From the IMG/VR virus record IMGVR_UViG_3300042389_001675: a stretch of 20,000 nt of DNA; one strand, given 5' to 3'. This document shows positions 1 to 19,999 of the stretch, in pieces. Below the pieces are notes generated by a model. It had not been told where the DNA came from. It did no database searches and saw only the letters and a list, made by a program, of their open reading frames with translations. Source of the stretch: an uncultured virus (IMG/VR IMGVR_UViG_3300042389_001675) (taxonomy: Duplodnaviria > Heunggongvirae > Uroviricota > Caudoviricetes). The number at the start of each line of letters is the position of its first letter. The stretch's first letter is position 1. The translations under genes and the position numbers were made by a program.

Positions 1-363
1 TGCCGTAAATCGAAATACCGCGGCGTCGGAATAAACAAACCCGGCCCCGGCTTGAAACTTTTCCCGCACCGTTGCCAGGGTTTGACCGGGTACAAGCAGA
101 TCGTCGTGATCCAGCTCAATCAGCACATCACCCGTTGCGGCATCACACGCCAATCGTTTTAGTTCGCCTACGTTACTGGACGCAGCGGAACCGTCCACCA
201 ACCGCACCCGCGGGTCACGCCAAATCGCTTCAGGGATCGTTACGTTACGGCCGTTTGGTACGATCACCCATTCCCAGTCGGTAACGGTTTGTAAATTTAA
301 GGAATGGTATGTTTCGAGCAAATAAGTCGGACGATGGGTGGGTGTAAACAGACTCAGCTTCAT
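1..363 (-). CDS. Glycosyltransferase family 2 (GT-A fold), N-terminal 121 codons; 3' end lies outside the window
   Basis: Absent from the ORF track; translated by hand from the ATG at 363, with SD GAGGA at 368-372: MKLSLFTPTHRPTYLLETYHSLNLQTVTDWEWVIVPNG...NVGELKRLACDAATGDVLIELDHDDLL...GFVYSD. This matches the GT2 pattern (S-x-x-x-P-T, Q-T-x-x-D-W-E-x-x-I-V, A-x-G-D-x-x-x-x-L-D-x-D-D). The frame is open to position 1. Confidence 0.88.
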   Translation of the reverse strand, partial: MKLSLFTPTHRPTYLLETYHSLNLQTVTDWEWVIVPNGRNVTIPEAIWRDPRVRLVDGSAASSNVGELKRLACDAATGDVLIELDHDDLLVPGQTLATVREKFQAGAGFVYSDAAVFRFTA

Positions 364-372
364 GGCGTCCTC

Positions 373-420
373 AAAAGAAAAGGGTCGTTCGGCCACATTG
401 TAACCGAACGACCCTTTTTT
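373..420. terminator. Intrinsic terminator, potentially bidirectional
   Basis: Perfect 15-bp inverted repeat AAAAGGGTCGTTCGG (378-392) / CCGAACGACCCTTTT (404-418) with an 11-nt loop. The minus strand has the T-tract TTTTCTTTT (381-373) and the plus strand has TTTTTT (415-420). It lies just after the stop of the 436-765 gene. Confidence 0.88.
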
Positions 421-2890: not shown

Positions 2891-3328
2891 TTAGGAACGC
2901 GATGGACCGTTCAAAACCGCCATCAGAGCCATATCGGAAGCTTTCTTCTCTGAAGTCAGTCTTCCAACATAGGGATCATTCAAGCTATCCCGCACACCGG
3001 CGGTCTTAACCGTCGTGTGATCCGGTACAGCCTGACCCAGGTCCGCCGCCGCCTTTTCCGATGCAGTCTTGTAGTAATGCATCTTATTGACCGCGTTAAC
3101 CAGCAGATCCAGGGTTTGAGCAGGATTGTTCAACATCTCGGCAGCAGCCTGCTTTTGATGCTGTGCAACACCGCCTGTACTCAGCAACAGCTCAAGAACC
3201 GCTTGCCGCTTGTCAGCCGCCTGCTTTTCCCGAGCACGATTGGCTTGCACTTCGCCCATCAATCGATCATTCAGCGCCGAGGAAGCGGCGACAAATTCGA
3301 TTGCCAGGGCTGCGAGCTTCGTATTCAT
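2891..3328 (-). CDS. Hypothetical helical head-assembly protein (145 aa from the ATG at 3328), extremely K-x-A rich
   Basis: SD GGAGG at 3336-3340 supports ATG 3328 (MNTKL) over the track start at 3346; 7 of its 10 lysines are in K-x-A. Confidence 0.78.
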   Translation of the reverse strand: MNTKLAALAIEFVAASSALNDRLMGEVQANRAREKQAADKRQAVLELLLSTGGVAQHQKQAAAEMLNNPAQTLDLLVNAVNKMHYYKTASEKAAADLGQAVPDHTTVKTAGVRDSLNDPYVGRLTSEKKASDMALMAVLNGPSRS

Positions 3329-3356
3329 CCGGAAACCTCCGTGCATAGAAACCAGT

Positions 3357-3384: not shown

Positions 3385-4614
3385 TTAACGGCGAGACCGG
3401 GCCAGGACTTCCTGGATGTAGTCTCGGACTTGATTCTTGGCGGCACCCTTCTTAGCCGCAGCGGTCTTGGCGGCCGCAGCGACTTCCATGCCGGGAGCAG
3501 CGGCAGCGGTATCTTCGGCTTCAGCTCCGCCTTCGCCTTCTGCCGCCATGGCGGCTTCCAGCTCTTCCGGGGTGATGCCGTTTGCCTGCATAATGGCAAT
3601 CAGCTGTTCCAGCTCATCGCCGCCCCCGCCAGCTTCAGGCGCTCCGCCCATCATGGCGTCTGCCATTTCAGCGGGAGGGCCACCAGCCATGGCAGGATCC
3701 ATCGGCATTTCGCCTTCGGCCTGCTTGGCCAGTTCAGCACTGTAATTTGCCAGGAAAGTCGCCACCTTGTCAGCGTCGTCCGAAGCTGTCTTGATGATTT
3801 CTTCCAGCGTGTGCTGTACCAGGCTATCAGCTGCGCGCTTGTCGAAATTACCGCTAAGCAATCCGGCCAGCTCCCAACCGGCCTGTCCGGCCAGATCAAC
3901 AGCTTCCTTCTCGTCCTCATCGTCAGTTTCGGCAGGCTTACCGCCGTTACGCAGGGCCTTGAAGTCTGAACCTTCCAGCTTACCGTTGTTATTTACGTCC
4001 AGCTTGTGCTGGCCGCCAACAAGTTCAGCTGCTTTCTGCATGTTGGCCAGTTCGACCAACAGCTGATTACCCAGGTCAGACGCAACCTTGGCCAGCGCGT
4101 CCAGCGACATTTCGGCATACTTGTAACCGTCGAGCTGACTGTTGTTAGTCCGCGCGGGGTGTGCCGTATTGCCGAGGCGGCCGCCTGTGCTGTCTTCCTT
4201 TTCAGCTTTCACTGAAGAGGTTTCATTTGAAGGATCTTCACCGGTCGGTTCCTTCTTGGTGCCAATCTGCAGTTGATCGGCTGAAGCAGTACCTGCCGGA
4301 TTAATTCCACCCATTTCCGACTTGCCGTCTACAGCCAGCTTGCGCCGCGCTGCAGCTTTCTTGTCCGCTACACCCTGCGCCGTGTTGTTGACTGAAGCCG
4401 GTCCCTGATCAGCTTTCACGTCCGCGTCATTTTCGCGGGCGCGAGCACCTTCGGTAGCTTCTTCAGTCGAGTCATCCACGTCTTTCACAGGATGAGTCGT
4501 CGGGCCACCTACGCTACCAGGCTCGGTGTGGGCCTCAGCAGCGCGCTTTTCGGTGGCGGCGATATCCTGCAGAAAACGATCGATAGACATCGACCCAATC
4601 GCAGAAGTATTCAT
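3385..4614 (-). CDS. Probable scaffolding/prohead core protein (409 aa)
   Basis: SD AAGGAG; acidic, Ala/Glu/Gly-rich, low complexity and Cys-free, with a basic amphipathic C-terminal helix (VRDYIQEVLARSRR); located between protease and MCP; many K-x-A motifs. Confidence 0.65.
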   Translation of the reverse strand: MNTSAIGSMSIDRFLQDIAATEKRAAEAHTEPGSVGGPTTHPVKDVDDSTEEATEGARARENDADVKADQGPASVNNTAQGVADKKAAARRKLAVDGKSEMGGINPAGTASADQLQIGTKKEPTGEDPSNETSSVKAEKEDSTGGRLGNTAHPARTNNSQLDGYKYAEMSLDALAKVASDLGNQLLVELANMQKAAELVGGQHKLDVNNNGKLEGSDFKALRNGGKPAETDDEDEKEAVDLAGQAGWELAGLLSGNFDKRAADSLVQHTLEEIIKTASDDADKVATFLANYSAELAKQAEGEMPMDPAMAGGPPAEMADAMMGGAPEAGGGGDELEQLIAIMQANGITPEELEAAMAAEGEGGAEAEDTAAAAPGMEVAAAAKTAAAKKGAAKNQVRDYIQEVLARSRR

Positions 4615-4648: not shown

Positions 4649-7273
4649 TCATCCGTTAAAAACCAGATTTTGGCCCAGACTCAACCTGACAGTTGTTGGA
4701 AAGTCGGTGTCCACAGCAGCAACCCGCCAGAGACTTGCCAGCTTGTAGATGGCGTAGTCCTTGGCCAGTTGTTCTCCACCCTGGTCCCACGAGGCCGACT
4801 TTTCATACACAGAAATCGCAGGAGCGCTGTGCCCCCGGATACAACTCAACAATACCCGATCTGTTACCGCAGCTTTGCTCAGCGAATAATCCGCATGCAA
4901 AGCAGCAGCCAGCATTCGAGCACTTTCAGTGGCTGTTTTGTCGATGAAATCACACTTTCCGGATTCGACCCGCAAAGGTAGTGATTCGTCCATCGTCATC
5001 CGTGTGTAAATTCCAGGTAAAACAGCAGCCGCACTTTTTAGGTGCATTTCCTGTCCAGCCAGCCTGGCATAATCACGAAGATTCAAAATGATTTTCCGAT
5101 CAGCTAAAGCAGCCAACTGGGTATCACACTGTACGGAGCCAAACGCCGCCAGCTTTTCCACAGGGAAGGCCGGTGTGACAAAAGCTCGATAGCTATTAGC
5201 ATCTATTGCGGCGGCTGATTTTTCAAGAGAAGCCAACCCATAACCCAGTTTAATTTGCGCGGTATGCGCTTCAGACCAACAACCGTGACTACCGTTTTGA
5301 TACAGAATTACAGCCAAGGGTGCTGTTGAACTTTCTGCCATTTTAATTGAGTTTTGCAACTCAAAGAATCCGGCGTCACTTGCCGCTTTTGTGAGGTAAT
5401 CGGCTTTTGCCCCGTAGGCAATCCGATCGGCTGGGCGAAAAACCCGACTAATATCAAACCAGGTTGGATTGGGATTGTCTACATGCAAGTGATGTAAATC
5501 GTTGCCAACTTTAACCAGGCGGGTCAGATTATCGCGGCAACCCCCAGCGGCGCACTTTTCACGGGTACAGTATTCGTCCCGCGTTTTGGCTGCGTGTTTG
5601 CAGAAAGAACAAATATCGTGCGGCACTCGGCAATTATGGCTGATTAAGCCACCCAAGCTATAAGACTCATCGTCCTCTACCTCAAAATTGTAAGTCTCTG
5701 CGTCAGTAACTTCACGTACTTGAATTTCTGCAATTCGGTAAGCGTATCGCCCGTCCGGACAAAACCGCATTGCAGCTGGTTTTGTCCGCTGTGTATGCGA
5801 TGTCACATAGTTTGCGGCTTTTTCGGAATCACCGGCTAACCGCCACAAGTCCAGGTGTGCGATATTCAGTGTATATTCGATACCACTGTTCTCATAACCG
5901 CTTGTGGCGCACTTAGTGTGGTCGATGCGATAGATCGAGGTTGGAATCCCCAAAGTAGCCAGCAAATCCCGGCCTTGCAGTAATAGTGCGCGATTTGCAG
6001 AAGACCAGTGTCCGCCCTTTTTATCAATCCAGCCATCACCATCCAGCCAAGCACCCAGAAAAGCCAGTTTGACTTCCGGTGTGGCGTTAAACAATTCCGG
6101 TGGAATTGCTTTATGCTTGCAGCCGCGACCCACATATTTGCGCAAAAATTCAGCAAACGCTGTGCTTTGCACCAGCACGCTTAAACCTTTATCGGTATTT
6201 CGCCGCGGTTTAATTTGTACAGTGATGTCCGGATAAAGGGCTTCCACCAGTTGCGGTAACCGTCGCGGCAGCGAATCAGTCAAGTTGCAATTAAAATCAA
6301 CAGTGCAGGCGGTATCTTCGTTATAGTTGAAGCTACCCTCCGCAATGTAGTACCCCATGATTGCGGCCAGAATTTTGCAGTCAATTGCGCCATACCCGCT
6401 GAATCGACCAACAGGCTGGTAAAAGAAGCGATCACCCGGTTGCAGATGTTCTGCATGTGTCCAATCCGCCGGGGCTGCCTCAAACGTAGCGTTATCTCGA
6501 AAATAACGAGACGCTTTAACTTTGACACTGCTGGCTGCACAGGCAAAGGTTTTAGCCAGCATTGGATGATCTTCAGTTAATTCAAGTGGTAACGGTAAGC
6601 CATTACACCGGAATGTATAGGCCTTACCTGTGAACTTACGCCGATTTAGCTGCGTTACCGGCTTCCAGCGGCCCTTGTGTGTCCAGACATACATGCCAAC
6701 TTTAACTTCAGCAATAGGGACATAGCCATGATCGCGCGTCAATACCGGATAAGTTGGATCTAACACACAAGCCATGCTCACGGGCATATCTTCACCGCGA
6801 GCAATCTTCTCCAGCTCCGTCTCTGCCACAAAACCGCCATTACGGTCGGCCGCTTCTTTGGAGGCGTTCAGCGCTACCAGTAATTCCACACGCCGCATGT
6901 CGTCGTTGTAAGCTGAGGCTTTAACCACCCCGTAAAACGGATCGCCGCGTTCCGGTTTGTTCTGATGATTACGGAAAAACTTGGCAAACTTGACGAACGT
7001 GTCATGGTGTTGGCGGCAGGTAGCTTCCTTGAACCCGTCGCCGTTACGATTAGGTCCGTAGGCTTCACTGGCCCCCAGCGCAATCAGGTGCACGGGAACC
7101 TCGTCCTTGGCAAATTTCACGCGATCCAGCTGAGGCAGAAAGCTGTGGCTGGCTCGCTTGAGAAATTCACGCCGATCAGCGCCAATCAGGCCACGCTGAC
7201 TCAGCTTGACGGGCTCCAGGGTGCGTTGTTCAAAATCCCATCCCGAGGGCGAGACAAACTTGACAAGTGCCAT
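4649..7273 (-). CDS. Prohead maturation serine protease with an intein (874-aa precursor, ~495 aa after splicing)
   Basis: Phage protease-type motifs PNRNGDGF, FFRNHQNK (candidate catalytic His) and PVSMA/CRVPHDICSFC (candidate catalytic Ser followed by a CxxC cluster); located upstream of scaffold and MCP. Confidence 0.75.
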   Translation of the reverse strand: MALVKFVSPSGWDFEQRTLEPVKLSQRGLIGADRREFLKRASHSFLPQLDRVKFAKDEVPVHLIALGASEAYGPNRNGDGFKEATCRQHHDTFVKFAKFFRNHQNKPERGDPFYGVVKASAYNDDMRRVELLVALNASKEAADRNGGFVAETELEKIARGEDMPVSMACVLDPTYPVLTRDHGYVPIAEVKVGMYVWTHKGRWKPVTQLNRRKFTGKAYTFRCNGLPLPLELTEDHPMLAKTFACAASSVKVKASRYFRDNATFEAAPADWTHAEHLQPGDRFFYQPVGRFSGYGAIDCKILAAIMGYYIAEGSFNYNEDTACTVDFNCNLTDSLPRRLPQLVEALYPDITVQIKPRRNTDKGLSVLVQSTAFAEFLRKYVGRGCKHKAIPPELFNATPEVKLAFLGAWLDGDGWIDKKGGHWSSANRALLLQGRDLLATLGIPTSIYRIDHTKCATSGYENSGIEYTLNIAHLDLWRLAGDSEKAANYVTSHTQRTKPAAMRFCPDGRYAYRIAEIQVREVTDAETYNFEVEDDESYSLGGLISHNCRVPHDICSFCKHAAKTRDEYCTREKCAAGGCRDNLTRLVKVGNDLHHLHVDNPNPTWFDISRVFRPADRIAYGAKADYLTKAASDAGFFELQNSIKMAESSTAPLAVILYQNGSHGCWSEAHTAQIKLGYGLASLEKSAAAIDANSYRAFVTPAFPVEKLAAFGSVQCDTQLAALADRKIILNLRDYARLAGQEMHLKSAAAVLPGIYTRMTMDESLPLRVESGKCDFIDKTATESARMLAAALHADYSLSKAAVTDRVLLSCIRGHSAPAISVYEKSASWDQGGEQLAKDYAIYKLASLWRVAAVDTDFPTTVRLSLGQNLVFNG
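5633..6769 (-). mobile_element. Intein with LAGLIDADG homing endonuclease (379 aa, precursor residues 169-547)
   Basis: Block A CVLDPTYPVLT; block B LELTEDHPML; LAGLIDADG motifs IMGYYIAEGS and FLGAWLDGDG; blocks F/G TYNFEVEDDESYSLGGLISHN followed by a +1 Cys. Confidence 0.95.
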
Positions 7274-7274
7274 A

Positions 7275-8450
7275 TCAATAGCCTCCGGGCGCTTGCATGC
7301 CCTGTACCAGATTCTGTAACGTCTGGCGACTTGTACCCTGATCTTGTTTAGCTTGCGCGTAGCCTGTTATCGGGCTCTGCCCGGCGGCATCAAACAACGC
7401 ATTAGCTGCTGCGGCAAGCAAACCTAAACGACCACCGCGTGCGGCTAAACTTGGTTTTTTAACTATTTTCTGTAAGCTGCCTTCTCCAAGAATGTGTTCG
7501 ACATTATCTTTCACAGCCTTGGGCACAGCCCCAGTCAGCATAGTGCCGCTCGGTAGTCTATCTTTAACGTATTGCACCCTTGTTGCATAGTTTGGAATTG
7601 CTGTCGCAATATTTTCTGATTGAGTCTGCATGCGTAAATTAGGCGGAGTTAACATACTCTCAATAGCGGCACGCTCTGACGGTGTAAGCTGAGCCTTCGG
7701 AGCAATTTTAATTGCCAGTTCGCGCGCCAGTCTGTCTTTATCAAACGTTTCCGGCAGTTTTGGTGCAAGCTTATGTAATACTCCGGTTGTCGCCGCAATA
7801 CCGCCTGTCTGTAACGCCGCCGTAGATTCAGGAGCGTAAGGTTTTGCGTTTTCTTGCAGTTCTTTAATCAATTGGGCTTTTGTTGAATCAGGCTGCGCAT
7901 TAAAGATTTCTGGCTGACTTTTGTCATGATAGTTTGAAAGTTGCTCTGCAGTTTGCACTGCAGCTGAAGGGTTTGAGGGTTTGGTTGGTTCAACAACGCC
8001 TCTTTGTTTATCTATCAACTTAGTAATTAGCTGCGGGTTTAAAGCAAGACCTAAGCCTCCGCCCATGGCGGTACCTGCAATACCGCCGCGCAGCATATTA
8101 CGCCGCAGACTACCTTCACCAGACACCAGCGATTTACCAAGTCCAGCGGCCGTACCTAGACCGCCGCCAACAAGCGAAGATCGCACAACATTCTTGGAAG
8201 CGTCATCCAGGCCACTCCAGGTACCAGTTGCACGTTGCCCCAGGTTTTTAATTCCGGATTTTAAACTTTCCCAATCAACGGCTGCGGCTTTTTCTGTAAA
8301 CCGCACGCCGATATCACGCAACACAAAAGTATTAGCCAACGCTTCCGGCGTCATTGGTCGGATTTTACCGGCATCTACCGCTTGCTTACGCAGTTGCAGT
8401 AACTGTAAACCTTGAGCGTACGTAATATCAGCCAATGATACTGGTTTCAT
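7275..8450 (-). CDS. Hypothetical glycine-zipper protein (391 aa), candidate internal virion/ejection protein
   Basis: Two GxxxG-rich hydrophobic segments (SLVGGGLGTAAGLG; GGIAGTAMGGGLGLAL); no Cys; N-terminal RKQA and EKAA; stop lies 1 nt from the protease ATG; overlaps the upstream gene by 23 nt. Confidence 0.7.
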   Translation of the reverse strand: MKPVSLADITYAQGLQLLQLRKQAVDAGKIRPMTPEALANTFVLRDIGVRFTEKAAAVDWESLKSGIKNLGQRATGTWSGLDDASKNVVRSSLVGGGLGTAAGLGKSLVSGEGSLRRNMLRGGIAGTAMGGGLGLALNPQLITKLIDKQRGVVEPTKPSNPSAAVQTAEQLSNYHDKSQPEIFNAQPDSTKAQLIKELQENAKPYAPESTAALQTGGIAATTGVLHKLAPKLPETFDKDRLARELAIKIAPKAQLTPSERAAIESMLTPPNLRMQTQSENIATAIPNYATRVQYVKDRLPSGTMLTGAVPKAVKDNVEHILGEGSLQKIVKKPSLAARGGRLGLLAAAANALFDAAGQSPITGYAQAKQDQGTSRQTLQNLVQGMQAPGGY

Positions 8451-9753
8451 GTGTCATCACATCCTGTGCAGAAGACGCCTTTGAGAAATGCGCAGAGTTT
8501 TGATAGCTAGGTGACGCCTGCGTTGATTGCAATTTGTTTTCCAAGTCCAGCATCTGTCCTAACTCAAAAGGTTCGGTATTGCCGGTCAACCGCTTATTCA
8601 AAAGCGGACCGACAGCCGCCGGTTGATCCGCCAGTCGCGGCGAAAGTTGCACCATCTGGTTATACTCAGACAACACTTCTTCCGGATCGTAAGCACTTAG
8701 CGGATTTTCCGGATCACTCATTAACTGGGTAAGTAGCGTCTGCGCCCGGATCTTACGCATTTCGTTGATATGGTCCGGACTTTCCAGTTTCTTGATTTGA
8801 TCCTCAATCAGCTTGTCGTTATCTTGCTTTGCGTTTTGGGCTAAATTGTTTGCTAGATTAAAACCCAGCCCGCCCGCGGCACCTGACGCGACACCTGCAG
8901 CTTGCTTCGTAATAACCTGTGTTTTCAGCTGGTCGTATGCGACCTGTGCCTCGGTTAGCTGATTAGTGGCAAGATCCAGCGCTGTTTCTGCCTGCTTGTA
9001 GCGTTCAACCTGCTGCAGCGTTGCGGCAATAGCTGGATAAGGTGCCTTGGTCCGGTCGCAGGCGTTAGTGGTTTGGTATGCCGCCTGTTTTTCTTGCGGG
9101 AATTGTGCGGCCAATGACCGCATCAACGCGACCCCGACTGGACCATAGTAAGTATTCACCGCCTGGGCCACCTGGCCAAAAGGCAAACGGTCGTAAGCGG
9201 ATTTTGCAAAATAATCGGTTAATACCTGATAGTGCTGCGTCAGTTTTTCGCGTTCCGCCTGAAAAGCGCGTCTTGCCTCTTCCTGCAGCCGCTGATTGTA
9301 GTCTACCGCATCATAGGCGCGCTTGAGTGGCAGCTGACGCGCCGCTACGACCGGTTCGGCGGCTGCGGTTTTAGTAAAAGTGGCCAGATCTTTGTCCAGG
9401 GACTCCTGGCGGACCAGATCGTCATAAGACGAAAATCGAGGTTCGGTGTATAAGACCTGGGCCACTTTTTCTTGCGCGGTTCCCCACATGGCATTATGGA
9501 TTGCATCGTAATCCGCCAGCGGAAAACCAGCCAGTTTATCCAGTACCGAATCGTTTGCGTTCCACTGCGCCAGCTGTCGTCCGGTATTAAAGGCGTTGCA
9601 GGCCGCTTTTAAAAACCCGGGAGAATAATTTAAAGCGCGTGCCACTTTCTGCATCGCGGCATTCGGCGACATCCCCTGGTTATCCACTAAATCAACAGCC
9701 TGCTTTACTCCGTCCAACAGCTGCTGTTCGTCGGCGCTACTCAGTGGGCGCAT
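8428..9753 (-). CDS. Hypothetical helical/coiled-coil protein (441 aa), K-x-A rich, probably head-associated
   Basis: Long ORF in the operon with ATG and upstream AAGGAG; motifs EKVA, TKTA, LKRA, AKSA, EKQA, YKQA, TKQA, the last followed by the Gly-rich segment AGVASGAAGGLGF. Confidence 0.8.
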   Translation of the reverse strand: MRPLSSADEQQLLDGVKQAVDLVDNQGMSPNAAMQKVARALNYSPGFLKAACNAFNTGRQLAQWNANDSVLDKLAGFPLADYDAIHNAMWGTAQEKVAQVLYTEPRFSSYDDLVRQESLDKDLATFTKTAAAEPVVAARQLPLKRAYDAVDYNQRLQEEARRAFQAEREKLTQHYQVLTDYFAKSAYDRLPFGQVAQAVNTYYGPVGVALMRSLAAQFPQEKQAAYQTTNACDRTKAPYPAIAATLQQVERYKQAETALDLATNQLTEAQVAYDQLKTQVITKQAAGVASGAAGGLGFNLANNLAQNAKQDNDKLIEDQIKKLESPDHINEMRKIRAQTLLTQLMSDPENPLSAYDPEEVLSEYNQMVQLSPRLADQPAAVGPLLNKRLTGNTEPFELGQMLDLENKLQSTQASPSYQNSAHFSKASSAQDVMTHETSIIG

Positions 9754-11435: not shown

Positions 11436-13928
11436 TTAGTTCCTCGCAGTTTCTTCCAGAGAAATGTCGCCCTGATCGAACGGAGATTCGATCGTTTTTT
11501 CTTTCAAGAAGAGCGTCACGTCGCCGAGTGATTCAAACGCATTGCGTAAGCTGTCTTCCAGCTCGGGCATATCGGCCTTGCCGTAACGATCTTCAAACTC
11601 TTCACCGTGCCAGTAGAAATTCATCAGCAACCGGCCCAGTGAATCCAGTGCATCCATCAAATCGGACAGATGCCGCTCAACAATCGAATCCTGCCGCACG
11701 GATTTGATCATGCCTGCAATCATGGCCGTGTCAAAAACTTCCTTTTGACCGTTTTGCGCAGCTTGCCCAGCCGTCTGGACGGATTTTTGAAAATCAGCGG
11801 CTTCAAAGTTCATCCATGGATCCCAGATTGTCGGGTCCGTCTGTTCGGCCGACAACTCCGGTAAGCGATAAGCCGCAGCTCCGGCGTACTGCGTCGGTAC
11901 CGCCGTGCGCGGGCCGTACTGCTCTACGCTGCGCTCATCGGCAAAATCCTCGTAGATTGGTGCCGAAGGTCCGCCTGCCAGAATACTGCGATTAGGCTCT
12001 GCCTGTTTTTCCGTACCGTAGCCTGGTGCATACTGGATCCGGTATTGGGCTTTACCTTGCTGTGCCGCGTTATCCAACACCAGCCGTGCCACTTTCTCAG
12101 TCAACCCGTGCTGACTGACCAGCTCCCAGATCGCAGCCGTCTTGCTCAGGGATTTTGCCCCAAAGACCGAATCGATATAAACATCCGTGTGATTGTGATA
12201 CACCGTCAACCCGGCGGTCTTTTCGTAAATCATCAGCTGGACATCGTCGATCTTGCCCAGCCGAATGGGTGCCGGTTCGCTGCGGGCGCTGCAGCAGTCC
12301 AGCAGAAAACCACCCGACGGTTTCAGCGGATCGCTTAACTTCAGGAATTTGGTATCGGGCGGCAGCCGAAGTTCTCCGGCAATTGCCCGCATCTTCGAAC
12401 CCTTCGCGGTCAGCATCAGGATTGCGTTGTAGTTGCTGGGTGTGTAATAACCGTCATCCGACATCGGATCTGAGATCTTCTTCACGTGCGGAATTGTCGC
12501 AGGTCGGCGTTCGTCGAAATTGATGTTTACCCGGAAATCCACCAGGTACTGTCCATTACCACGGTCTTCGCGCACATGGAACGGTGTTGTGGTGGCTTTG
12601 CTGGCATCAATGGCAATGTATTCGCCACCTTCCTGCAGACTTTGGCTATCACCCAGACCTTCAAACCAGCTATCCCACTCATCCTGTTCGGAAATCTGAT
12701 CCGCGAAGACGTTGGTGGTGTACGTATTCATCCAGGCTTTACCGTCGCCGCTGTTATTCTCCAGCCGCACCACGGTGACCATCGGCTCCTGGCCCCGATT
12801 ACTGATCGGGTGGACGGCCAGTAGCATCTTGTTAAACGCACCGGGCTTTTCCAGTACACGGTAGAGTGCAGTTTCGGTGGGATTCGTCAGTGACGCAGAA
12901 ATTTGGGTGTTATACACCCGGCTGACCTGTTCACCTTTGCGGTGATCCTTAATCAGTACCGTGTCATTCAGCAGTCTGGCCCGCTCGGCGTCATCCAATT
13001 CCGGCATGCGCTTATCGATCACGTATTCCGCCACGTACATACGCAGCTTGCCTTCTTTCACGTGATCGATCGGCGCAGGCGGTGGTGTGTCAGGAATCAG
13101 GCGATTTCCCGGCAGGTTGCTTGCGGTTTTGGCGATTGTTACCGGCAGGATACTGGCTTCCTGCGCATCCACTGCCGCTTTCAGCTGCTGGCCCCAGCGC
13201 GAAAGACAATCTGCACCGTAAAATCGGGTCAGCCCCCGGCGCACTGCCGGAAAAGTCTCGGCAAAGGCATAAGCAGCCTTGAGCAGCGGCAAGCTTGTAG
13301 GCAGGATCCGGTTAAAATCCAGTTTTTGCGCCTGCTTCGCCAGTGCCGCGGTAAGCGGCTGTTCCACCACGGCGGCCTGGTTGAGCTTACGTGTACCTGC
13401 GCCTTTATACAACGACCCGGCTGTTTTGAGTTTGCAGGCAGCCAACAGTGGTAATATGTCCTTAAACCAGCGGGCATCGCTGGCACGTTTACCACCACCA
13501 ATCGATGGTGGGATGGAAAAGGTACGGATATCCGGGTAAATTCCGCCCAATTCCCTGAGTTTGGACACGCCCGCTTGCTCGCCCAGGATGTGCGGCTTGC
13601 GGCTCATGATGTAATTGATCCAGTTTTCCTTGAGCGGCACAAACGAATCGTTATTTTTGAGATAGAGCAGTTCGTGCCCTTTTAAATCACCGTTTAGGAA
13701 GAAAACCGGGGCGTAGAGCCACTGGGATCCGATCTGGAACCCAAATACGGCCACGGCTTTGGTGTTGTCTTCATTGCGTTCAACCAGCTGAAACCCAACC
13801 ATATGATCCAGGAGTCGCGGAGCCTTGTCGCGCAGGTAAGCATAAGCCAGGCTGGAAAAGGCCTGTTCAAACTCGGTCTCACCGCCCGTTCCGCCGAGGT
13901 TGGCCCGCTTCATCAATTCCGTTTGCAT
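11436..13928 (-). CDS. Large hypothetical protein (830 aa), K-x-A punctuated, probably virion/head-associated
   Basis: Long ORF with ATG and upstream AAGGAAG; globular-looking blocks separated by MKRA, GKRA, LKTA, AKQA, AKTA, EKTA, SKTA, EKQA; acidic helical C-terminus. No family recognised. Confidence 0.82.
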   Translation of the reverse strand: MQTELMKRANLGGTGGETEFEQAFSSLAYAYLRDKAPRLLDHMVGFQLVERNEDNTKAVAVFGFQIGSQWLYAPVFFLNGDLKGHELLYLKNNDSFVPLKENWINYIMSRKPHILGEQAGVSKLRELGGIYPDIRTFSIPPSIGGGKRASDARWFKDILPLLAACKLKTAGSLYKGAGTRKLNQAAVVEQPLTAALAKQAQKLDFNRILPTSLPLLKAAYAFAETFPAVRRGLTRFYGADCLSRWGQQLKAAVDAQEASILPVTIAKTASNLPGNRLIPDTPPPAPIDHVKEGKLRMYVAEYVIDKRMPELDDAERARLLNDTVLIKDHRKGEQVSRVYNTQISASLTNPTETALYRVLEKPGAFNKMLLAVHPISNRGQEPMVTVVRLENNSGDGKAWMNTYTTNVFADQISEQDEWDSWFEGLGDSQSLQEGGEYIAIDASKATTTPFHVREDRGNGQYLVDFRVNINFDERRPATIPHVKKISDPMSDDGYYTPSNYNAILMLTAKGSKMRAIAGELRLPPDTKFLKLSDPLKPSGGFLLDCCSARSEPAPIRLGKIDDVQLMIYEKTAGLTVYHNHTDVYIDSVFGAKSLSKTAAIWELVSQHGLTEKVARLVLDNAAQQGKAQYRIQYAPGYGTEKQAEPNRSILAGGPSAPIYEDFADERSVEQYGPRTAVPTQYAGAAAYRLPELSAEQTDPTIWDPWMNFEAADFQKSVQTAGQAAQNGQKEVFDTAMIAGMIKSVRQDSIVERHLSDLMDALDSLGRLLMNFYWHGEEFEDRYGKADMPELEDSLRNAFESLGDVTLFLKEKTIESPFDQGDISLEETARN

Positions 13929-13962: not shown

Positions 13963-14220
13963 TCAGGAATGAATAATCTGATCATACGGGTTCCAGCCAC
14001 CGCCCAGGTCACGTGCGGCCAGTCGCTGGTTAAACTCGGCCAGCTTTTCCTGCATACTGGCATAGGCCAAGGCGTCTGCCTGCTTATCCAGCTCGGTTTC
14101 TGCAGGTGGTGCCGGTTTCTTTTTCTTTTTGGGCTTTACTGTGGGTGGGAGCAGATAAGCTTCTGCCAGTTTTGCATTAAAACCACCCAGAGTCGGCTTG
14201 AGTTGGAACATCCTATTCAC
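13963..14220 (-). CDS. Small hypothetical protein (85 aa; may start at ATG 14211)
   Basis: Fills the gap co-directionally; basic run KPKKKKKP; contains DKQA and EKLA. Confidence 0.6.
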   Translation of the reverse strand: MNRMFQLKPTLGGFNAKLAEAYLLPPTVKPKKKKKPAPPAETELDKQADALAYASMQEKLAEFNQRLAARDLGGGWNPYDQIIHS

Positions 14221-14292: not shown

Positions 14293-17200
14293 TTAGCGGA
14301 ACAGGTAGGGCAAATAGCGTAAATTGGAAAATTCGTAAATTCCGGATTTAAGCGGATTGTTAAATCCCTTCCACATTTGGCTGAGCGTACCACGATTTGC
14401 CAGATCATTTTCATACTGTTGCCAATCCCAACCACGCTGCCCGTCGAGCCCAGCCAAGTCACCCAGCTCAAAAGCTGTATTCAACAGCGTTGTTGCCCCA
14501 ACTGCCGGTAATCCACCACGCAGCCCTGCGGCGCTGGTGGCGGCACGGCCAGGTAAAGCCAAATCTAAAGCAAAGTTTGTCGGCCCGGCTAATCTCGGAA
14601 CTGTACCTGTTAATTTCGGTAAAAGGCGACTTAGCCAACCAGGATTAGCTTGTGCTTGTGATTGTGCCAGCGGTAACAGTTTTTTACCCAGATAAGCCAT
14701 ACCGCGTCGTTCCGCTTCAGACAAGCCTAGCGTCTCTAATCCGGTCATACCGGCCTGATTAAAAGCCTGCATTGGAGTCGGCATGGTCAAACTGTTTGTA
14801 GTGGTTTGTGGCAACTGACTAACAAGCTTGAGCGGCACCGGCAGGATATCTACTTGGGCTAAATTTTTCTGCAGGTTTACGGGCAGGATCGACTGTGCGA
14901 ATTCTGTGCTTGAAATTGACGGATTAACAAGATCTGTCTGCGTAGTTTCAGAAACAGTTGGTTCTGGTTGCCAACTGGACGGACTGGGTAGATCGGTAAG
15001 TACCGGTAAAGGTTTTGCCGATTCTGCAAAACTGGGCGGCGGTACAGCCATACCGCCCCGCGACTGGACAGGCAGGTTGGTAGGTGCAGGCAAGTTAGCA
15101 GGTAGGTTGGTAGGTGCAGGCAAGTTAGCAGGCAGGTTGGTAGGTGCAGGCAAGTTAGCAGGCAGATTGGTAGGTGCAGGCAAGTTAGCAGGTGGGTTGG
15201 CAGGCGGGTTGGCAGGTGCAGGCAAGTTAGCAGGCGGATTGGCAGGTGCAGGTTTTGCCGCAGCAAGCGGTGTGGTTAGATAACCAGTCAAACCACCCAA
15301 TCCGGCGCCTGCCGCCAAACTCAAGTTACGTTGACGTTTACGCGCTTCTTCTGTCTGGGCTGGGTTTAGTGCCTGATACGCACGATGTCCCAGATAGCCT
15401 GCCCCTGCGCCCAGGCCTGCCCCCAGCAAACTGCGAGTCAGTGTGTCTGCTGCCATGTTTGCCTGTTTCAAAACAGGATCCGTTTCAGGGAGTGCAACTG
15501 ATGGCAGTTTATACGCAGGTTTGGGCTGCACCACAGCACGATCCGGCACTTCACCGAAATCAGTACCGGTGGCCAGGCTGGGTACAAAACTGGTACCGCG
15601 TTCTTCGCTGACACCGCCGCGTGCCACTGACTCCAGCAGACTTTTCTTCAAACCGGAACCGTACATTTGCGTCATCCAATCCGGGTCATGCTGTAGTTGA
15701 TACATCCCGCGCACCATATGTGGCTGAAACGGTGGTGGATTTTTATGCACTGGCACCGTCGTGACACCGAACTCATCAAAGTCTTTCAGCATGGACGGCC
15801 GAATCTTTGTACCGATGGTGTAATGCAGTACCGGAGCTTCCAGATACTGCCCAACCGCCTGTTTTGGTAACAGGCGTTCATGCCCCGAACGCGGCTGATA
15901 CGTATGTTCCAGTGTGGAGTAAGGGACAATATCATCCGGAACGTGATCGCCGATTTCTTCGGTGAGCTGTACGTGATTAATTAAACCGCGCGCCAGTAAC
16001 TCGATGTTGCGCCGATGCCCCTGCATCCCGGAAGCGGCCATGGCCTTGCGGAACTCATTGACAAAATACCGCCGACCTTCACCCACACCTTTGTACTGCG
16101 TAATTAACGCCGGGTTAGGAATACCATCACTGAGCATGTCTCCGGCTTCGACCTGATCACCTTTTTTAATCTTGAGTTCAAAGCCTTCGCCCACGTAATG
16201 CTTCTGGTCGTTAATCATGACGTAGTGGCCACCGGCAGCCGCCGGTTCAACCCGCTGAACTACTCCGTCGACCGTAGCATGGGCAGCACCGCCCTGCATC
16301 TTCTTGGGTACCTGAATCAACTGGTTGATGTACTGAAAACCGCCGACCGCTTTTTCCTGGCCTGCCACACCGCCTGAGTGCTTGGCCGAGAGCTGCCCCT
16401 GACTGATTGGTTCGGACAACGCCTGAGCTGCCTGCAGGCCAACCTGTTCACCGCGGCCGGGCAACGTACCGTTTTCCCGAATTCCGACATCACGGGCATA
16501 GACTCCGCCTTCCGGCGAGCCGCCTACCAGCGGACTACGGATTAAAATCCGGTTTTTACCGAGCCGTTCCAGATGCTTGAGAATTTTTGGTGTCAGCGGT
16601 GTGTTGCGTTTGTATGGCCCGGTATCACGAGCCAAAAGCGCACCTTCATTATCCAGATCGGAGGTATCCGCAATCAGTCCACGCACAGGTGCATCCGGAC
16701 GTTCGTCGCCTTCTTCGCCCATCACGACCAGGCGATGTCCGGCCTGATTAAGCTGCTTGGAGAGAAATCCGGCTTCCTGTGTGGCAAACTTGGTGGCAAT
16801 GATGCCGCGTCGCGCACCGTAAGTTCCTGCCCAGTATTCTTCCGGCGTCAAACCCTCGCTGTAACTGCGCAGCACCGGAATTGGAATCACTTCATCCCGG
16901 TGATCCGTATAAAGCATGTCTGAACCCAGCAGACTGGCCAGATTCATCGGTTTACCGCGGCTACCGGACAAAACCTGCAAACCCAGTGGATTGCCGCTGT
17001 CTACGGCTTCCTGCAGCACGGCTTTAATTTGAGGCGAAGACTCGTTGTTAACCGTGCGGATAATTCGCTCATTACGCTGTTGCTCGGTGAGCGTATCATC
17101 CGCCAGGATGGGGGCCAGCTGCTGCGTGATCCGTTGCCGGATCTCGTTGGCTGCCTTGCTTCGACGCAAATGCCGCAAACCGAACGACAACCCGCCCTGG

Positions 17201-17388
17201 TCCTGTGCCGAGCGCCACCCGACCTGATTCAGCTGAAACGACACATCCCGGTATTTATCCGGATGTTGTCGTGCCACTTGCTGGAGCAGTGCCGATAGAC
17301 TTTTCTTGTCCAGTACACGATGATAATCGCGTAAATCCTCCGGCAAGGCGTCGTTTACCAGCAACTGCCCAACAGTGGTATTCAGCAT
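14293..17388 (-). CDS. rpoC: Phage multisubunit RNA polymerase beta' subunit, C-terminal half (~640 aa), fused to a ~390-aa non-RNAP tail
   Basis: beta' motifs in the correct order: TTVG, SGSRG, bridge helix SYSEGLTPEEYWAGTYGARRG...TQEAGFLSKQL, IRSP, trigger loop GEQVGLQAAQALSEPISQGQLSAKHSGG, VEAGDMLSDG, HRRNIELLARGL, DWMTQM..SGLKKSLLESVARG. SD GAGGA upstream. Confidence 0.92.
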   Translation of the reverse strand: MLNTTVGQLLVNDALPEDLRDYHRVLDKKSLSALLQQVARQHPDKYRDVSFQLNQVGWRSAQDQGGLSFGLRHLRRSKAANEIRQRITQQLAPILADDTLTEQQRNERIIRTVNNESSPQIKAVLQEAVDSGNPLGLQVLSGSRGKPMNLASLLGSDMLYTDHRDEVIPIPVLRSYSEGLTPEEYWAGTYGARRGIIATKFATQEAGFLSKQLNQAGHRLVVMGEEGDERPDAPVRGLIADTSDLDNEGALLARDTGPYKRNTPLTPKILKHLERLGKNRILIRSPLVGGSPEGGVYARDVGIRENGTLPGRGEQVGLQAAQALSEPISQGQLSAKHSGGVAGQEKAVGGFQYINQLIQVPKKMQGGAAHATVDGVVQRVEPAAAGGHYVMINDQKHYVGEGFELKIKKGDQVEAGDMLSDGIPNPALITQYKGVGEGRRYFVNEFRKAMAASGMQGHRRNIELLARGLINHVQLTEEIGDHVPDDIVPYSTLEHTYQPRSGHERLLPKQAVGQYLEAPVLHYTIGTKIRPSMLKDFDEFGVTTVPVHKNPPPFQPHMVRGMYQLQHDPDWMTQMYGSGLKKSLLESVARGGVSEERGTSFVPSLATGTDFGEVPDRAVVQPKPAYKLPSVALPETDPVLKQANMAADTLTRSLLGAGLGAGAGYLGHRAYQALNPAQTEEARKRQRNLSLAAGAGLGGLTGYLTTPLAAAKPAPANPPANLPAPANPPANPPANLPAPTNLPANLPAPTNLPANLPAPTNLPANLPAPTNLPVQSRGGMAVPPPSFAESAKPLPVLTDLPSPSSWQPEPTVSETTQTDLVNPSISSTEFAQSILPVNLQKNLAQVDILPVPLKLVSQLPQTTTNSLTMPTPMQAFNQAGMTGLETLGLSEAERRGMAYLGKKLLPLAQSQAQANPGWLSRLLPKLTGTVPRLAGPTNFALDLALPGRAATSAAGLRGGLPAVGATTLLNTAFELGDLAGLDGQRGWDWQQYENDLANRGTLSQMWKGFNNPLKSGIYEFSNLRYLPYLFR
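15071..15252. repeat. Coding tandem repeat, 30-bp unit (PANLPAPTNL on the minus strand)
   Basis: Four near-identical copies of GGYAGRTTGGTAGGTGCAGGCAAGTTAGCA at 15071-15190, followed by degenerate PANP/PANLPA subunits to ~15252. Confidence 0.95.
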
Positions 17389-17402: not shown

Positions 17403-18023
17403 TCAGTCGCCCTGGTCTACACCAAAAGCCTCAGCGACATCAGTCTCGGTGATTTCCTCTGCGGCTTTTCGGCGTCTGCCTTTTTTGGCTACCCGTTGTA
17501 CGGGTTCTTCAACTACCGGCTCTTCCGCTGCGGGCAAGTCTTCAATTACCGGAGCTTCTTCCTCGGCCGGAGCTTCTTCGACGACAGCGGTTACCGGCTC
17601 AGGCGCGGTGGCAGGCGCGGCCACCACAACGTCAGACACCGTAACTACGTACTGAATGCGATCGGCTTGTGCCCGTGTCAGGCGGTTTTGTCCGACCGCA
17701 AGGTCAATACCGGTTTTAGCTTTGCTGATCTGGATGGCGTCGCCAGTGACTTGAACAGCAGTGGCTCCGTCACCGAAGGCAGCAGTGACCGCAACCAGGA
17801 TCGGCGTATCGTCGCAAACCAACTCTACGCGCTTATCCAGCGTTGTCGCGACGGGTGCAACCGTGCGGGAAGCGTAATACTTGTCTGACGAAAAATGTCC
17901 GTCCCCCGGCCGCACAAAATAGGAAGCATGCGGGCGAGCATTACTACGCCCTTCGGCGGTTTCAATTGGTTTTACCTGTTGTTTGGCGCGGTAGTACGCG
18001 TCATCTGCGCTGCGATGAGCCAT
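17403..18023 (-). CDS. Hypothetical protein (206 aa) with acidic Glu/Pro/Ala-rich disordered C-terminus
   Basis: ATG 1 nt after the upstream TGA; lies between the two beta' genes. Confidence 0.75.
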   Translation of the reverse strand: MAHRSADDAYYRAKQQVKPIETAEGRSNARPHASYFVRPGDGHFSSDKYYASRTVAPVATTLDKRVELVCDDTPILVAVTAAFGDGATAVQVTGDAIQISKAKTGIDLAVGQNRLTRAQADRIQYVVTVSDVVVAAPATAPEPVTAVVEEAPAEEEAPVIEDLPAAEEPVVEEPVQRVAKKGRRRKAAEEITETDVAEAFGVDQGD

Positions 18024-18024
18024 C

Positions 18025-18252
18025 TCAAATTCTCACAATATCGGTAACGGTAGTCTCGTTAATTCCCAACTTTTTCAGATTTTCATTAAAGTTGGCATCC
18101 GCACAGTGTGAGACCAAGACACTGGCAGCTGTTCCAAACACGGCCGCCACGCTCACTGGCGTGCCGTCCGGTAAACGGATTACCACTTGACTGGCGGGGA
18201 TTCGCACAGGTGGTTTGCCGATACGGTCAAGTACTTCAACAATAAACGACAT
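18025..18252 (-). CDS. Small hypothetical protein (75 aa)
   Basis: ATG with SD-like TAAGGT overlapping the upstream stop; tightly packed on both sides. Confidence 0.72.
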   Translation of the reverse strand: MSFIVEVLDRIGKPPVRIPASQVVIRLPDGTPVSVAAVFGTAASVLVSHCADANFNENLKKLGINETTVTDIVRI

Positions 18253-18262
18253 TGCGTTTACC

Positions 18263-18877
18263 TTAATTTCTAGCCCGAGAGCGCAGCAGCAAAGCCGCAG
18301 CCTGACTGGCCGTACTCTGGGTATTGCGTTTAGCGGTTTCCAGGTCCGCGGGTGGAGTAAACGCTACCCCATATTCCCATTCGGCCGCTTTCATCGGCTC
18401 AATAGGCTGGATCTGGCCCAGGCCGCCACCGCCATTATCCGGTGTAGAGGCGGCATAACCGGCACCGCCCTGAGCAATCTGATTCAAATCTTCCGGTGTC
18501 GCCACCATATCCTGCGCTGGAATGTGGATTCCCAAGGCATCCACAATTTTTGCCAGCATTTTCTTAATCTGCATAATTTCGACATTCACGTCAATCTTGG
18601 GCTTGAGCCCTGGTCCAGCACCCTGCATGCCGCCACCTTGTGAGGCCATTGCCTGCTGCACTGCCATTTGAATCATCGGCATCATGGCGGTCATTGGGTC
18701 GCCGCCACCTGCCATCGCTGGATCCATTGGCGGTGCTCCACCCCCCGCCATCGCCGGATCCATTGGTGGCGTGCCGCCACCTGCCATCGCCGGATCGGTT
18801 GCGGCAACAAACGCCTGCTTTTGCAGGGTTGCGATATTCTGTTTAGCCTGCTGCAGCAGGTGAAGGTTAACGCCCAT
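18263..18877 (-). CDS. Hypothetical Met/Gly/Pro-rich protein (204 aa) with MDPAMAGGG repeats
   Basis: ATG with SD AGGAG; QKQA is followed by three DPAMAGGG repeats and then a helical segment; no Cys. Confidence 0.8.
   Translation of the reverse strand: MGVNLHLLQQAKQNIATLQKQAFVAATDPAMAGGGTPPMDPAMAGGGAPPMDPAMAGGGDPMTAMMPMIQMAVQQAMASQGGGMQGAGPGLKPKIDVNVEIMQIKKMLAKIVDALGIHIPAQDMVATPEDLNQIAQGGAGYAASTPDNGGGGLGQIQPIEPMKAAEWEYGVAFTPPADLETAKRNTQSTASQAAALLLRSRARN
18701..18796. repeat. Coding tandem repeat, 36-bp period (PPMDPAMAGGGx), ~3 copies
   Basis: GCCATCGCYGGATC at 18711, 18747 and 18783. Confidence 0.9.
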
Positions 18878-18886
18878 GAAAGACTC

Positions 18887-19999
18887 CTATGCGTCAAGGA
18901 TCTGGACCGAATCGTCAATTGAAAGTGTGCCGCGTGCGTATGCCCGCTTGGCATCCTGGATGGTACGAAAAATCTTTGGTGGTCGCTCGTTGCGCGCACG
19001 CGTGGCATGAAACAGGCCACCAATATATTCATTCGCCGGAGCATGCATCACGGATTTGAAATCACTCAGGCTAAAGAGATTCCGGCTTGGCAGCAGCCGC
19101 TCGTAGGCTTCTTGTACGGCCTTGTCGGTGCTGGGCACGTGGTAGTTCATAGCGTCACCGTCAAAGTCGGCGTTAAACCCTTTGACGATTAGCGGGCTTA
19201 CCTGCAGTGTATCACCTTTGGTAATTCGCGGCTTCATTGCCATGATTCCAAACTTGTGCAACACCGGCGCCCGGCTGATATACACAGGACGCTGATCCAT
19301 TTCTTCCATTAAAATCCGCCGCGCCAGTTGCGTCTTATCGGCAATCTGTTCCCGGGCTGCCCGCATGGACATACCCTGCCGTACCAGACGACGGGTCACA
19401 AACTTTTCGTAGGCTTTAAAGGCTTTCTCTTCCGGTAATCCCACCGAATCCATATCCAGATCCGGGTTGGGCGAAATCACGGCACGCCCGACATTGTCCA
19501 CCGTCGTGGAAATCAGTTTACGCTGGAGCGTACCAAATTTAGGACTGCTCCCGAACACCGATTTGAGCGCACCCTGTACATTTTTGTCCCGGCTTTTCTG
19601 ACTGATCGGATCACCCAGTCCCGTCACTGCCTTAAATGCGTTGTACGTCGCCAGGCGTTCGGCGTGGGCGGATTCCGCACCCAGCGCCTGCTGGATATCC
19701 TTGAGATTTTTGTTGGCTTCAAAAAGTTCTTTGTACAGGTAATTGGCGTCGTTAATCAGCGGCATATCGTTCGACATGAGACTGACAGGACGAAACTGAG
19801 GCGGCAATACCGGCACTTTGGTCAGGACATAGTCTTCGGGTTTTAGCCCCAGCTTTTTGATGCTCTTCAGGTAACCCAGCTTACGCACCGCACTGTCGCG
19901 CTCCGAGGCCCGCCCGGCGGCAATAATCGTACGAGCCTGTGCAATTTCCTTATCCACATTCATTCCGGCCAACGCCTTTTGAATGGCTTGCGGGCCGGA
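18887..19999 (-). CDS. rpoC: Phage multisubunit RNA polymerase beta' subunit, catalytic (N-terminal) half; 5' end lies outside the window
   Basis: Catalytic NADFDGD at 19154-19174; also VPVLPPQFRPV, DANYLY, KFGTLQRKLISTTVDNVGRAVI and SRAPVLHKFGIMA. The frame stays open upstream of the track's TTG (SGPQAIQKALAGMNV, matching beta' GAEAIQALL), so the true start is beyond 20000. Confidence 0.95.
   Translation of the reverse strand, partial: SGPQAIQKALAGMNVDKEIAQARTIIAAGRASERDSAVRKLGYLKSIKKLGLKPEDYVLTKVPVLPPQFRPVSLMSNDMPLINDANYLYKELFEANKNLKDIQQALGAESAHAERLATYNAFKAVTGLGDPISQKSRDKNVQGALKSVFGSSPKFGTLQRKLISTTVDNVGRAVISPNPDLDMDSVGLPEEKAFKAYEKFVTRRLVRQGMSMRAAREQIADKTQLARRILMEEMDQRPVYISRAPVLHKFGIMAMKPRITKGDTLQVSPLIVKGFNADFDGDAMNYHVPSTDKAVQEAYERLLPSRNLFSLSDFKSVMHAPANEYIGGLFHATRARNERPPKIFRTIQDAKRAYARGTLSIDDSVQILDA

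Follow-up and report, generated by a model that had tools for sequence, protein, structure and literature searches.

The stretch of DNA analysed here (the window, 20,000 nucleotides) comes from an uncultured lake virus of the Caudoviricetes (IMG/VR record IMGVR_UViG_3300042389_001675) and carries, on its minus strand, a gene for the C-terminal half of the RNA polymerase (RNAP) β′ subunit (β′C) that runs on without interruption into a long C-terminal tail. We show that the 1031-aa product joins β′C in frame to an accessory protein specific to this lineage, whose gene in sister phages stands on its own directly behind that for β′C. From sequence comparison and analogy, we give about an even chance to the reading that this fusion is a virion RNAP pro-protein, probably cut at a K-x-A tripeptide (K641-Q-A) at the seam. 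The open reading frame (ORF) and its parts are as follows; pLDDT is the predicted local distance difference test score of AlphaFold2 (AF2) models.

14293-17388, minus strand: β′C plus tail, a single frame of 1031 aa with an ATG start.
15553..17388, minus strand: β′ C-terminal half proper (residues 1-612) of a split phage multisubunit RNAP, by Pfam and PHROG.
15478..15552, minus strand: conserved linker (residues 613-637, EVPDRAVVQPKPAYKLPSV...), aligned in all long relatives.
15460..15468, minus strand: K641-Q642-A643 seam between polymerase and tail module, a candidate processing site by motif and homology.
15277..15432, minus strand: two GxxxGxxxG stretches flanking a basic loop (residues 668-688), by sequence.
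15067..15255, minus strand: Pro-rich tandem decapeptide repeats PANLPAPTNL (residues ~712-774), by Tandem Repeats Finder (TRF).
14776..15066, minus strand: Pro/Ser/Thr-rich disordered stretch (residues 775-871), without secondary structure, pLDDT 37-49.
14608..14775, minus strand: weakly predicted helical region (residues 872-927), with AF2 helices at 872-885, 891-914 and 918-927, pLDDT 46-68.
14296..14571, minus strand: conserved tail domain (residues 940-1031), with helix LPAVGATTLLNTAFELGDL, then GWD, then NPLKS.

Profile and translated searches agree on where the polymerase stops. Pfam RNA_pol_Rpb1_5 (PF04998) covers residues 179-477 (E 7.8e-19; score 68.6 bits, cut-off 28.5) and phrog_25354 residues 26-493 (E 2.5e-33); tblastn alignments end at residue 613 against Vibrio phage D69 (28% identity, residues 103-613) and at residue 612 against Salmonella phage Arash (23% identity, residues 5-612), the E values for Arash/D69 being 3e-34 and 1e-48. 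An earlier reading made from the letters of the window without database searches (the sequence-only reading) had put this end near residues 610-620. Metagenomic relatives are 83-88% identical over residues 1-612; to the closest metagenomic relatives the protein remains alignable up to about residue 637, and the linker is modelled with a pLDDT of 73-81 from residue 615.

The K641 codon (AAA) lies at 15466-15468, followed by the Q-A codons at 15460-15465 and an in-frame ATG (M645) at 15454-15456; the sequence-only reading had these landmarks right, including the VLKQA context and the lack of an obvious Shine-Dalgarno sequence before the ATG. Upstream of ATG 15456 there is only 'aacaggcaaac', whereas at least 11 of the 17 window genes have a GGAG/AGGA-like motif; an internal start at this ATG was rejected, no Shine-Dalgarno-like motif comparable to those of other genes being found. 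The joint is spanned, without a single difference, by contigs assembled from three further lake-water runs (X3, 15149-15788; X4, 15387-15732; X6, 15364-15514). The domain in which the frame terminates is homologous to other phages' tails (E 1.4e-19), as the end of a chance ORF would not be. The long ORF with its in-frame joint is confirmed as real. A spurious long ORF, produced by chimeric assembly or by an error in sequencing, a danger that the sequence-only reading had seen at the junction, is next to negligible as an explanation: the exact window protein is not among the 120 matches listed and the repeat breaks short-read contigs, but the bridging contigs, the domain homology and some 20 independent fused loci all speak against it. 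The short-read contigs break within the tandem repeat (15069-15163), so the number of repeat copies is that of the window assembly, without an independent check; the frame is safe under changes of copy number by whole 30-bp units.

Comparison with relatives identifies what has been fused. Cultured phages are only distantly related: there was no DNA match among 50,697 phage records, and the tail was covered by none of the 22 phage records matched by tblastn (best protein identity 28%). In metagenomes, 1246 of 8000 scored candidates were homologous at E<=0.001, lying on contigs of up to ~210 kb, and we compared a set of 121 proteins, i.e. the query and the 120 best matches listed. More than 150 residues follow the polymerase core in 71 of the 121 proteins, and the other 50 end no more than 111 residues past it. 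The relatives share a gene order (a ~1485-aa fusion of β and the N-terminal part of β′ (β′N), three small ORFs, β′C, a small basic ORF and a ~840-aa protein), within which the tail occurs in three states: it is fused to β′C in about 20 loci (L001-L005, L021-L039 and others), as a single ORF of 1060-1310 aa; it forms a gene of its own in nine loci (L012-L018, L024 and L046), where β′C has 654-664 aa; and it is absent from distant relatives (L061-L067, at 51-57% identity and with a β′C of 636-680 aa, as well as D69 and Arash). This answers, with all three states, what the sequence-only reading had left to a survey of related phages.

The split loci locate the boundary precisely. The separate tail ORF starts 2 nt past the β′C stop (4 nt in L016; overlapping the stop in L046), and the complete separate ORFs have 842, 813, 629 and 254 aa. 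Split β′C ends in ...MFFGGKFNVGxK, followed by a TAG stop and CC, and the next ORF begins M-D-K-Q-A-V-E-P; K-Q-A of the window protein corresponds to residues 3-5 (M-D-K-Q-A) of this gene in L012, L013 and L014. Since the separate gene begins with M-D-K-Q-A at the homologous place, VLKQA in the window marks the module boundary, as had been proposed for KQA from the letters. Fused relatives read ...FFGGRYKVGMQKRAVEATP... at the seam and retain the Met of the formerly separate gene; in 49 of the 71 long relatives the linker ends in FFGG[KR][FY], and 46 of those 49 have K-x-A 0-5 residues after this motif. A programmed frameshift or readthrough in the split forms was considered and rejected: the joint (GGG GCT AAG TAG CC ATG) has no slippery run, and the spacing and frame differ in L016, which further disfavours it; plain translational coupling is preferred.

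The feature that unites fused and separate tails is the conserved domain. Nearly all tails have, in the same order, a hydrophobic helix (LPAVGATTLLNTAFELGDL in the window protein, GKAAVPVGVALES in another class), G-W-(D/E/N) and (N/S)-P-(L/V)-(K/E). A class-1 hidden Markov model (HMM), which gives the window-protein match cited above (E 1.4e-19), recognizes 30 of 75 long tails; a class-2 HMM recognizes 39 of the 75, all four standalone proteins among them (L046sep, E 4e-48; L016sep, E 1e-19; L014sep, E 7e-14; L012sep, E 2e-12); and the two together account for 67. Alignment A2 (24 segments) joins both classes, fused and standalone, with the W of GW and the P of NP invariant or nearly so. Its profile retrieved only 31 clusters from 1.84 billion representative proteins, and the sole Pfam family on the 27 new clusters was RNA_pol_Rpb1_5, present in 3; the domain therefore exists only standalone or fused to β′C. 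We show by these profile searches that this conserved domain of ~90-150 residues, predicted to be helical, is clade-specific and the exclusive partner of β′C. The window protein has the domain, directly after β′C and behind a K-x-A boundary, the three features by which we delimit a new "β′C-tail" family.

The tail is foreign to RNAP, as the sequence-only reading had maintained: it is a separate gene in sister phages, and no known RNAP domain was found on residues 641-1031 in Pfam, PHROG or NCBIfam. Family searches with this tail and with standalone tails gave nothing usable: Pfam at E<=1 gave only DUF6132 (E 0.24, 16 residues), PHROGs only a match to phrog_342 driven by low complexity (E 0.018), and NCBIfam nothing at E<=0.1; the best ESM Atlas score, 0.81, was under the lead threshold. 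A search of the open-access literature turned up no account of a phage β′ with a C-terminal tail. The "moraphage" lineage was ruled out as the present clade; according to the accessible part of its description, it has no RNAP (PMC12619734). An InPase domain (PF18823, E 3.9e-57) lies within the tail of one relative, P0089, at residues 693-826; its presence could serve the polymerase by removing pyrophosphate, or be a sign that the tail is virion cargo.

Apart from the conserved domain, the tails have diverged widely. Tail identity is only 25-39% (in forced global alignment) where the cores are 83-88% identical; past the linker, the segment shared in BLAST is mostly ~55-65 residues, P0002 alone aligning over most of the tail, and no alignable similarity of the Pro/Ser/Thr-rich stretch to the tails of relatives with such cores was found. 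In the window protein the order PANLPAPTNL repeat, Pro/Ser/Thr-rich stretch and Gly/Leu-rich C-terminus, all in one frame, is as the sequence-only reading described it. TRF reports a 30-bp period with 4.5 copies and 93% matches at 15069-15204, with related periods to 15252. Of 75 long tails, 53 contain a recurrent N-I-M-P motif, often in several copies; standalone tails start ...APTNIMPAKPPAP, which by eye resembles the window repeat unit APTNLPANLPAP. The two glycine-rich stretches (SLLGAGLGAGAGYLG, residues 653-667; LSLAAGAGLGGLTGYL, residues 689-704) each have a GxxxGxxxG pattern, and a similar pair stands at the same place in only a few relatives (P0060, P0066, P0090 and P0083).

Structure prediction gives a low-confidence picture. 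In the AlphaFold model of residues 575-1031 (32-sequence alignment, mean pLDDT 55.3), a helix at 638-655 is predicted to span the seam (pLDDT ~80), residues 695-871 have no structure, the decapeptide region is disordered, and the conserved domain forms four helices over 960-1025 (pLDDT 72-84). A model of the standalone tail P0128 combines a disordered N-terminal part with an all-helical part at 98-251, at low confidence (mean pLDDT 55.6). Fold searches gave, for residues 575-1031, a best BFVD match of E 0.055 (TM ~0.1) and a best VIA-wide Z of 4.3 and, for P0128, 0 Foldseek matches in the PDB at E<=10 and a best VIA-wide Z of 5.8. The best matches are generic helical hairpins, and models of this confidence make no case for a new fold.

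The sequence-only reading took the glycine stretches for two Gly-zipper helices and the tail for a membrane-active protein or membrane tether. The GxxxGxxxG stretches do exist, but AF2 gives them a pLDDT below 50 and no helix at 655-668 and 693-705. Kyte-Doolittle hydropathy, averaged over 19 residues, peaks in the tail at only 1.01, below the transmembrane range, and no glycine-zipper family matched in Pfam (E<=1) or NCBIfam (E<=0.1); by hydropathy and model alike, the stretches fall short of a transmembrane-grade helix. Membrane activity or insertion of the tail, as predicted from its sequence and model, is not supported. In nearly every long tail the most hydrophobic segment is the first helix of the conserved domain.

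Glycine-rich stretches of this kind are seen in other proteins as well. The cysteine-free 391-aa protein at 7275-8450 (minus strand) has an N-terminal LRKQAVD and two glycine stretches, GGGLGTAAGLG and GGIAGTAMGGGLGLAL, around a basic loop, and thereby shares the layout of the start of the β′ tail. Arash has Gly-zipper stretches too, in Gp213 and Gp224, both detected in virions according to the part of the Arash study available to us (PMC10585845). In D69 a 59-aa ORF between β′N and β′C (gp262; L052, 8279-8458) has an MDKVA start, a glycine-zipper-like stretch and a basic tail, and looks like the first part of the window protein's tail made free-standing; as a homologue of the window's glycine hairpin it was rejected, BLASTP giving no alignment at E<=100, and the likeness is architectural only.

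The seam tripeptide is under an unusual constraint. Among fused tails, 69 of 71 have K-x-A within the seam window, against 3/71, 8/71 and 14/69 for control windows placed deeper; of 12 distinct standalone tails, only 5-6 keep it at the corresponding position, the others having MDQA, MDEA or MDTP (Fisher p 6e-5 to 6e-6 for fused against standalone, indicative only, as the sequences are related). The constraint is thus tight when the tail is fused and relaxed when it is separate, as a cleavage site predicts. Similar motifs recur elsewhere in the window: 10 of 17 complete proteins have K[QRL]A in their first 50 aa (for example at 18812-18820, approximately 13918-13926, 9697-9705 and 8379-8387), against 1.02 +/- 0.99 in shuffled sequences, and 0 of 2000 shuffles reach 10. 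The motif column is kept in 21/21, 10/10, 5/5, 17-18/19 and 14/18 orthologues, 10/10 being the count for the family of the small protein at 13963-14220. In the 830-aa family, a leader variable in length and sequence ends at K-x-A and is followed by a nearly invariant NLGGSGGETEFEQAF, the pattern expected for a removed propeptide.

Head-module proteins of this and related phages carry the same signal. Just upstream of the capsid gene, two acidic, Ala/Glu-rich, cysteine-free, scaffold-like proteins (3385-4614 and 2891-3346, minus strand) contain 15 and 7 K-x-A sites, versus 4.9 and 1.7 expected by composition; they are, from sequence, likely scaffold proteins cut many times. K-x-A also lies near the N-termini of Arash Gp213 and Gp220-225 and of D69 gp268-273. 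A short motif therefore recurs both near head-protein N-termini and at an internal seam, as processed pro-proteins would have it, and K[QRL]A near N-termini looks like a lineage-wide propeptide or targeting code. From these sequence patterns, we infer cleavage at K641-Q-A.

The genomic setting suggests that the polymerase is itself a head component. The β′C-tail gene lies within a head module whose major head protein is at 1261-2247 (PHROG); neighbouring proteins of 830, 441 and 874 aa have matches in Arash Gp218, Gp220 and Gp222, which carry the annotation "structural", and tblastn of the β′N, β′C, 830-, 441- and 874-aa and capsid proteins reveals a gene order shared with the RNAP-head module of Arash/D69. 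As reported in the accessible part of the Arash study, mass spectrometry of the virion gave more spectra for Gp206 (β) than for any other protein, 3516, and 1210 for Gp216 (β′) (PMC10585845). A 94%-complete, 194-kb relative has a single β′ catalytic gene, so that one enzyme must serve from the first minute. The InPase family seen in the P0089 tail is found mainly or typically in virion-packaged phage polyvalent proteins, according to the available portion of their survey (PMC5512222). Packaging of the polymerase in the virion is thus a plausible and reasonable reading, by analogy with Arash.

The accessory unit consists of the K-x-A seam, in the window protein a pair of glycine-rich stretches, an extended, hypervariable and disordered region rich in Pro, Ser and Thr in which short motifs recur, and the conserved helical domain. 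We propose that it acts as follows. The polymerase would be packed into the head and delivered alongside the DNA, as in Arash, a distant relative in culture, and the tail would travel in together with it; a head-maturation protease of the lineage, seemingly K-x-A-specific, would cut the fusion at K641-Q-A, so that polymerase and tail come apart within the head. Once free, the tail might serve as internal head or ejection cargo, for which its disordered, motif-bearing part would be suited by threading or multivalent binding.

Several observations weigh against this proposal. Packaging is extrapolated from a relative at 23% identity; the searches run gave no known-family or fold indication of the tail's function; and the window protein lacks the FFGG motif that precedes K-x-A in most long relatives. 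Prohead protease families S77 and S78 of Pfam gave nothing at E<=1 in two related genomes (G001 and G002), a search that divergent proteases would escape, and the Arash paper, in the main text accessible, contains none of the terms 'cleav', 'protease' or 'N-terminal' (PMC10585845). A K509-Q-A lies within the folded polymerase core, so that the motif alone cannot define a site, and standalone tails beginning M-D-K-Q-A would lose five residues only. The sequence-only reading, which had proposed a polyprotein co-packaged with the RNAP and released by cleavage, thus finds support for packaging and for the seam motif but not for a protease.

Other explanations of the fusion deserve consideration. 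The tail could stay uncut and permanently tie the polymerase, through its C-terminal domain or glycine stretches, to the inner membrane where the DNA enters, the portal, the capsid wall or the end of the phage DNA, and transcription could then help to pull the genome in. We regard such a tether as possible but doubtful. A flexible linker of 200-300 residues between an enzyme and a conserved end domain is tether-like, and the hydrophobic first helix of that domain and the Gly-zipper stretches of Arash Gp213, Gp224 and the 7275-8450 protein would fit; the virion RNAP of phage N4, moreover, is membrane-associated according to the portion of a review that was available, which also states, from unpublished data, that its terminal domains are needed for injection and encapsidation (PMC4496689). 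Split phages, however, keep the module without a covalent tie, neither the hydropathy nor the glycine-stretch model suits membrane insertion, and a permanent tether leaves unexplained why K-x-A at the seam is conserved in fused forms only. The fusion could also mean nothing: a small indel may have removed the stop between two translationally coupled genes, the tail protein doing whatever it does when separate and the disordered linker tolerating the join. The split frames are parted by TAG and CC only, both states recur among close relatives, and tails are dispensable in L061-L067, D69 and Arash; yet fused forms dominate (71 of the 121 best-matching proteins), the seam motif is far better kept in them than in split forms, and the domain was never found fused elsewhere or far from β′C, which together make this account unlikely.

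A further possibility is suggested by the C-terminal domain (CTD) of Rpb1 in eukaryotic RNA polymerase II, a disordered Pro-rich tandem-repeat extension built of YSPTSPS heptads. The tail occupies the corresponding position, the C-terminus of β′/Rpb1, and has tandem Pro-rich decapeptides; its N-I-M-P-type motifs, which would here be amplified into (A/T)NLP decapeptide repeats (cf. APTNIMPAKPPAP and APTNLPANLPAP), might recruit factors to the transcribing enzyme as short linear motifs. The tail would then be a phage counterpart of the RNA polymerase II CTD, recruiting partners in packaging, delivery or transcription, and its rapid turnover would stem from an arms race in which those partners are at stake. 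We hold this counterpart to be very improbable, and the arms race that depends on it equally so: repeats are no feature of the family but private to this phage, most relatives having non-repetitive low-complexity tails; the decapeptides lack Ser/Tyr, and heptads with such phospho-acceptors are absent; and in sister phages the module does its work as an independent protein.

A pro-protein cut at the seam can be set beside several known systems. Arash (Gp206 and Gp216) and Vibrio phages D69/D148/D181 have the same split layout of β plus β′N, small ORFs and β′C, and in Arash/D69 the RNAP genes stand directly before the head genes, as here, with K-x-A near the N-termini of neighbouring head proteins; they differ in sequence (23-28% identity) and in having a β′C of 606-609 aa without a tail or tail gene, the next gene after β′C being a helicase (Gp217) in Arash and a 66-aa ORF in D69. 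In phiKZ-like jumbo phages a prohead protease processes many head proteins at a short consensus, S/A/G-x-E, and T4 uses L/I-x-E. The phiKZ-like phages are a separate lineage with two RNAP sets, compared with one here, the candidate motif here is K-x-A rather than x-x-E, and no β′ fusion to this tail family is known there. To our knowledge, it is not understood for any phage how a multi-subunit RNAP of more than 2500 residues enters and leaves the head and passes the tail. Like the polymerase proposed here, the multisubunit RNAP of phiKZ-like phages is carried in the virion and injected, according to the accessible part of PMC7598289.

The closest analogy for an appendage on a virion polymerase is, in our view, coliphage N4 gp50, a packaged, membrane-associated polymerase whose C-terminal domain is reported to serve encapsidation and whose N-terminal domain is reported to serve genome injection, both from unpublished data cited in the review (PMC4496689); it is a single-subunit T7-like enzyme, unrelated in sequence, formed by one 3500-aa chain and, in that part of the review, not reported as cut. 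Phage polyvalent proteins are likewise large, multi-domain, head-packaged and delivered to the host, and share InPase with the P0089 tail (Iyer et al. 2017, PMC5512222, as far as accessible); they differ from the window protein, whose tail has no enzymatic or catalogued domain and whose carrier is an RNAP subunit.

The clade is abundant in lakes and seas, as the 1246 homologues indicate, and offers a natural experiment in which the same accessory module is fused, separate or absent beside the polymerase. Many head-module proteins bear what may be a simple processing code, K-x-A; if this is the cutting and targeting signal, it gives a testable rule for cargo and a possible handle for loading foreign proteins into capsids. 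If the fusion is left uncut, a polymerase on a 300-residue leash would represent a new kind of transcription-coupled genome delivery.

Two further genes of the module flank the fusion.

13963..14220, minus strand: small conserved basic protein of ~85 aa, directly downstream of the tail, with K-L-A near its N-terminus.
18887..19999, minus strand: β′N (Pfam RNA_pol_Rpb1_2, E 6.7e-27), running off the window.

The former reads LGGFNAK-x-AEAYLLPP, then a lysine run and a DLGGGWNPYDQ end, has no family match, and follows the tail in tail-bearing relatives (orthologues in L001, L002, L005, L021, L023, L025, L027, L031 and L046). At the place of the latter, relatives L001-L005 have ORFs of 1479-1494 aa, i.e. 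the β plus β′N fusion. Neither β′ piece contains cysteine (0 in the 1031 aa of 14293-17388; 0 in the 370 residues of 18887-19999). The three small ORFs that part β′N from β′C (17403-18877, minus strand; 204, 75 and 206 aa) are syntenic in all close relatives; the first has an N-terminal K-Q-A followed by PPMDPAMAGGG repeats, and the third ends, in relatives, in an acidic DDSDD run.

Inteins (LAGLIDADG_3, Hom_end_hint, Hint) lie within the polymerase core of P0025, P0061, P0069, P0074, P0079, P0083 and P0151. The 874-aa protein at 4649-7273 (minus strand), a homologue of Arash Gp222 and D69 gp270 with matches at residues 61-169 and 535-616, has a LAGLIDADG domain (E 1.8e-10) at residues 400-460 and 20 cysteines; the LAGLIDADG segment is very probably an intein inside a head protein. 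At the window edge, adjoining the head module, 1-396 (minus strand) encodes a fragment of a family-2 glycosyltransferase (E 9.3e-7).

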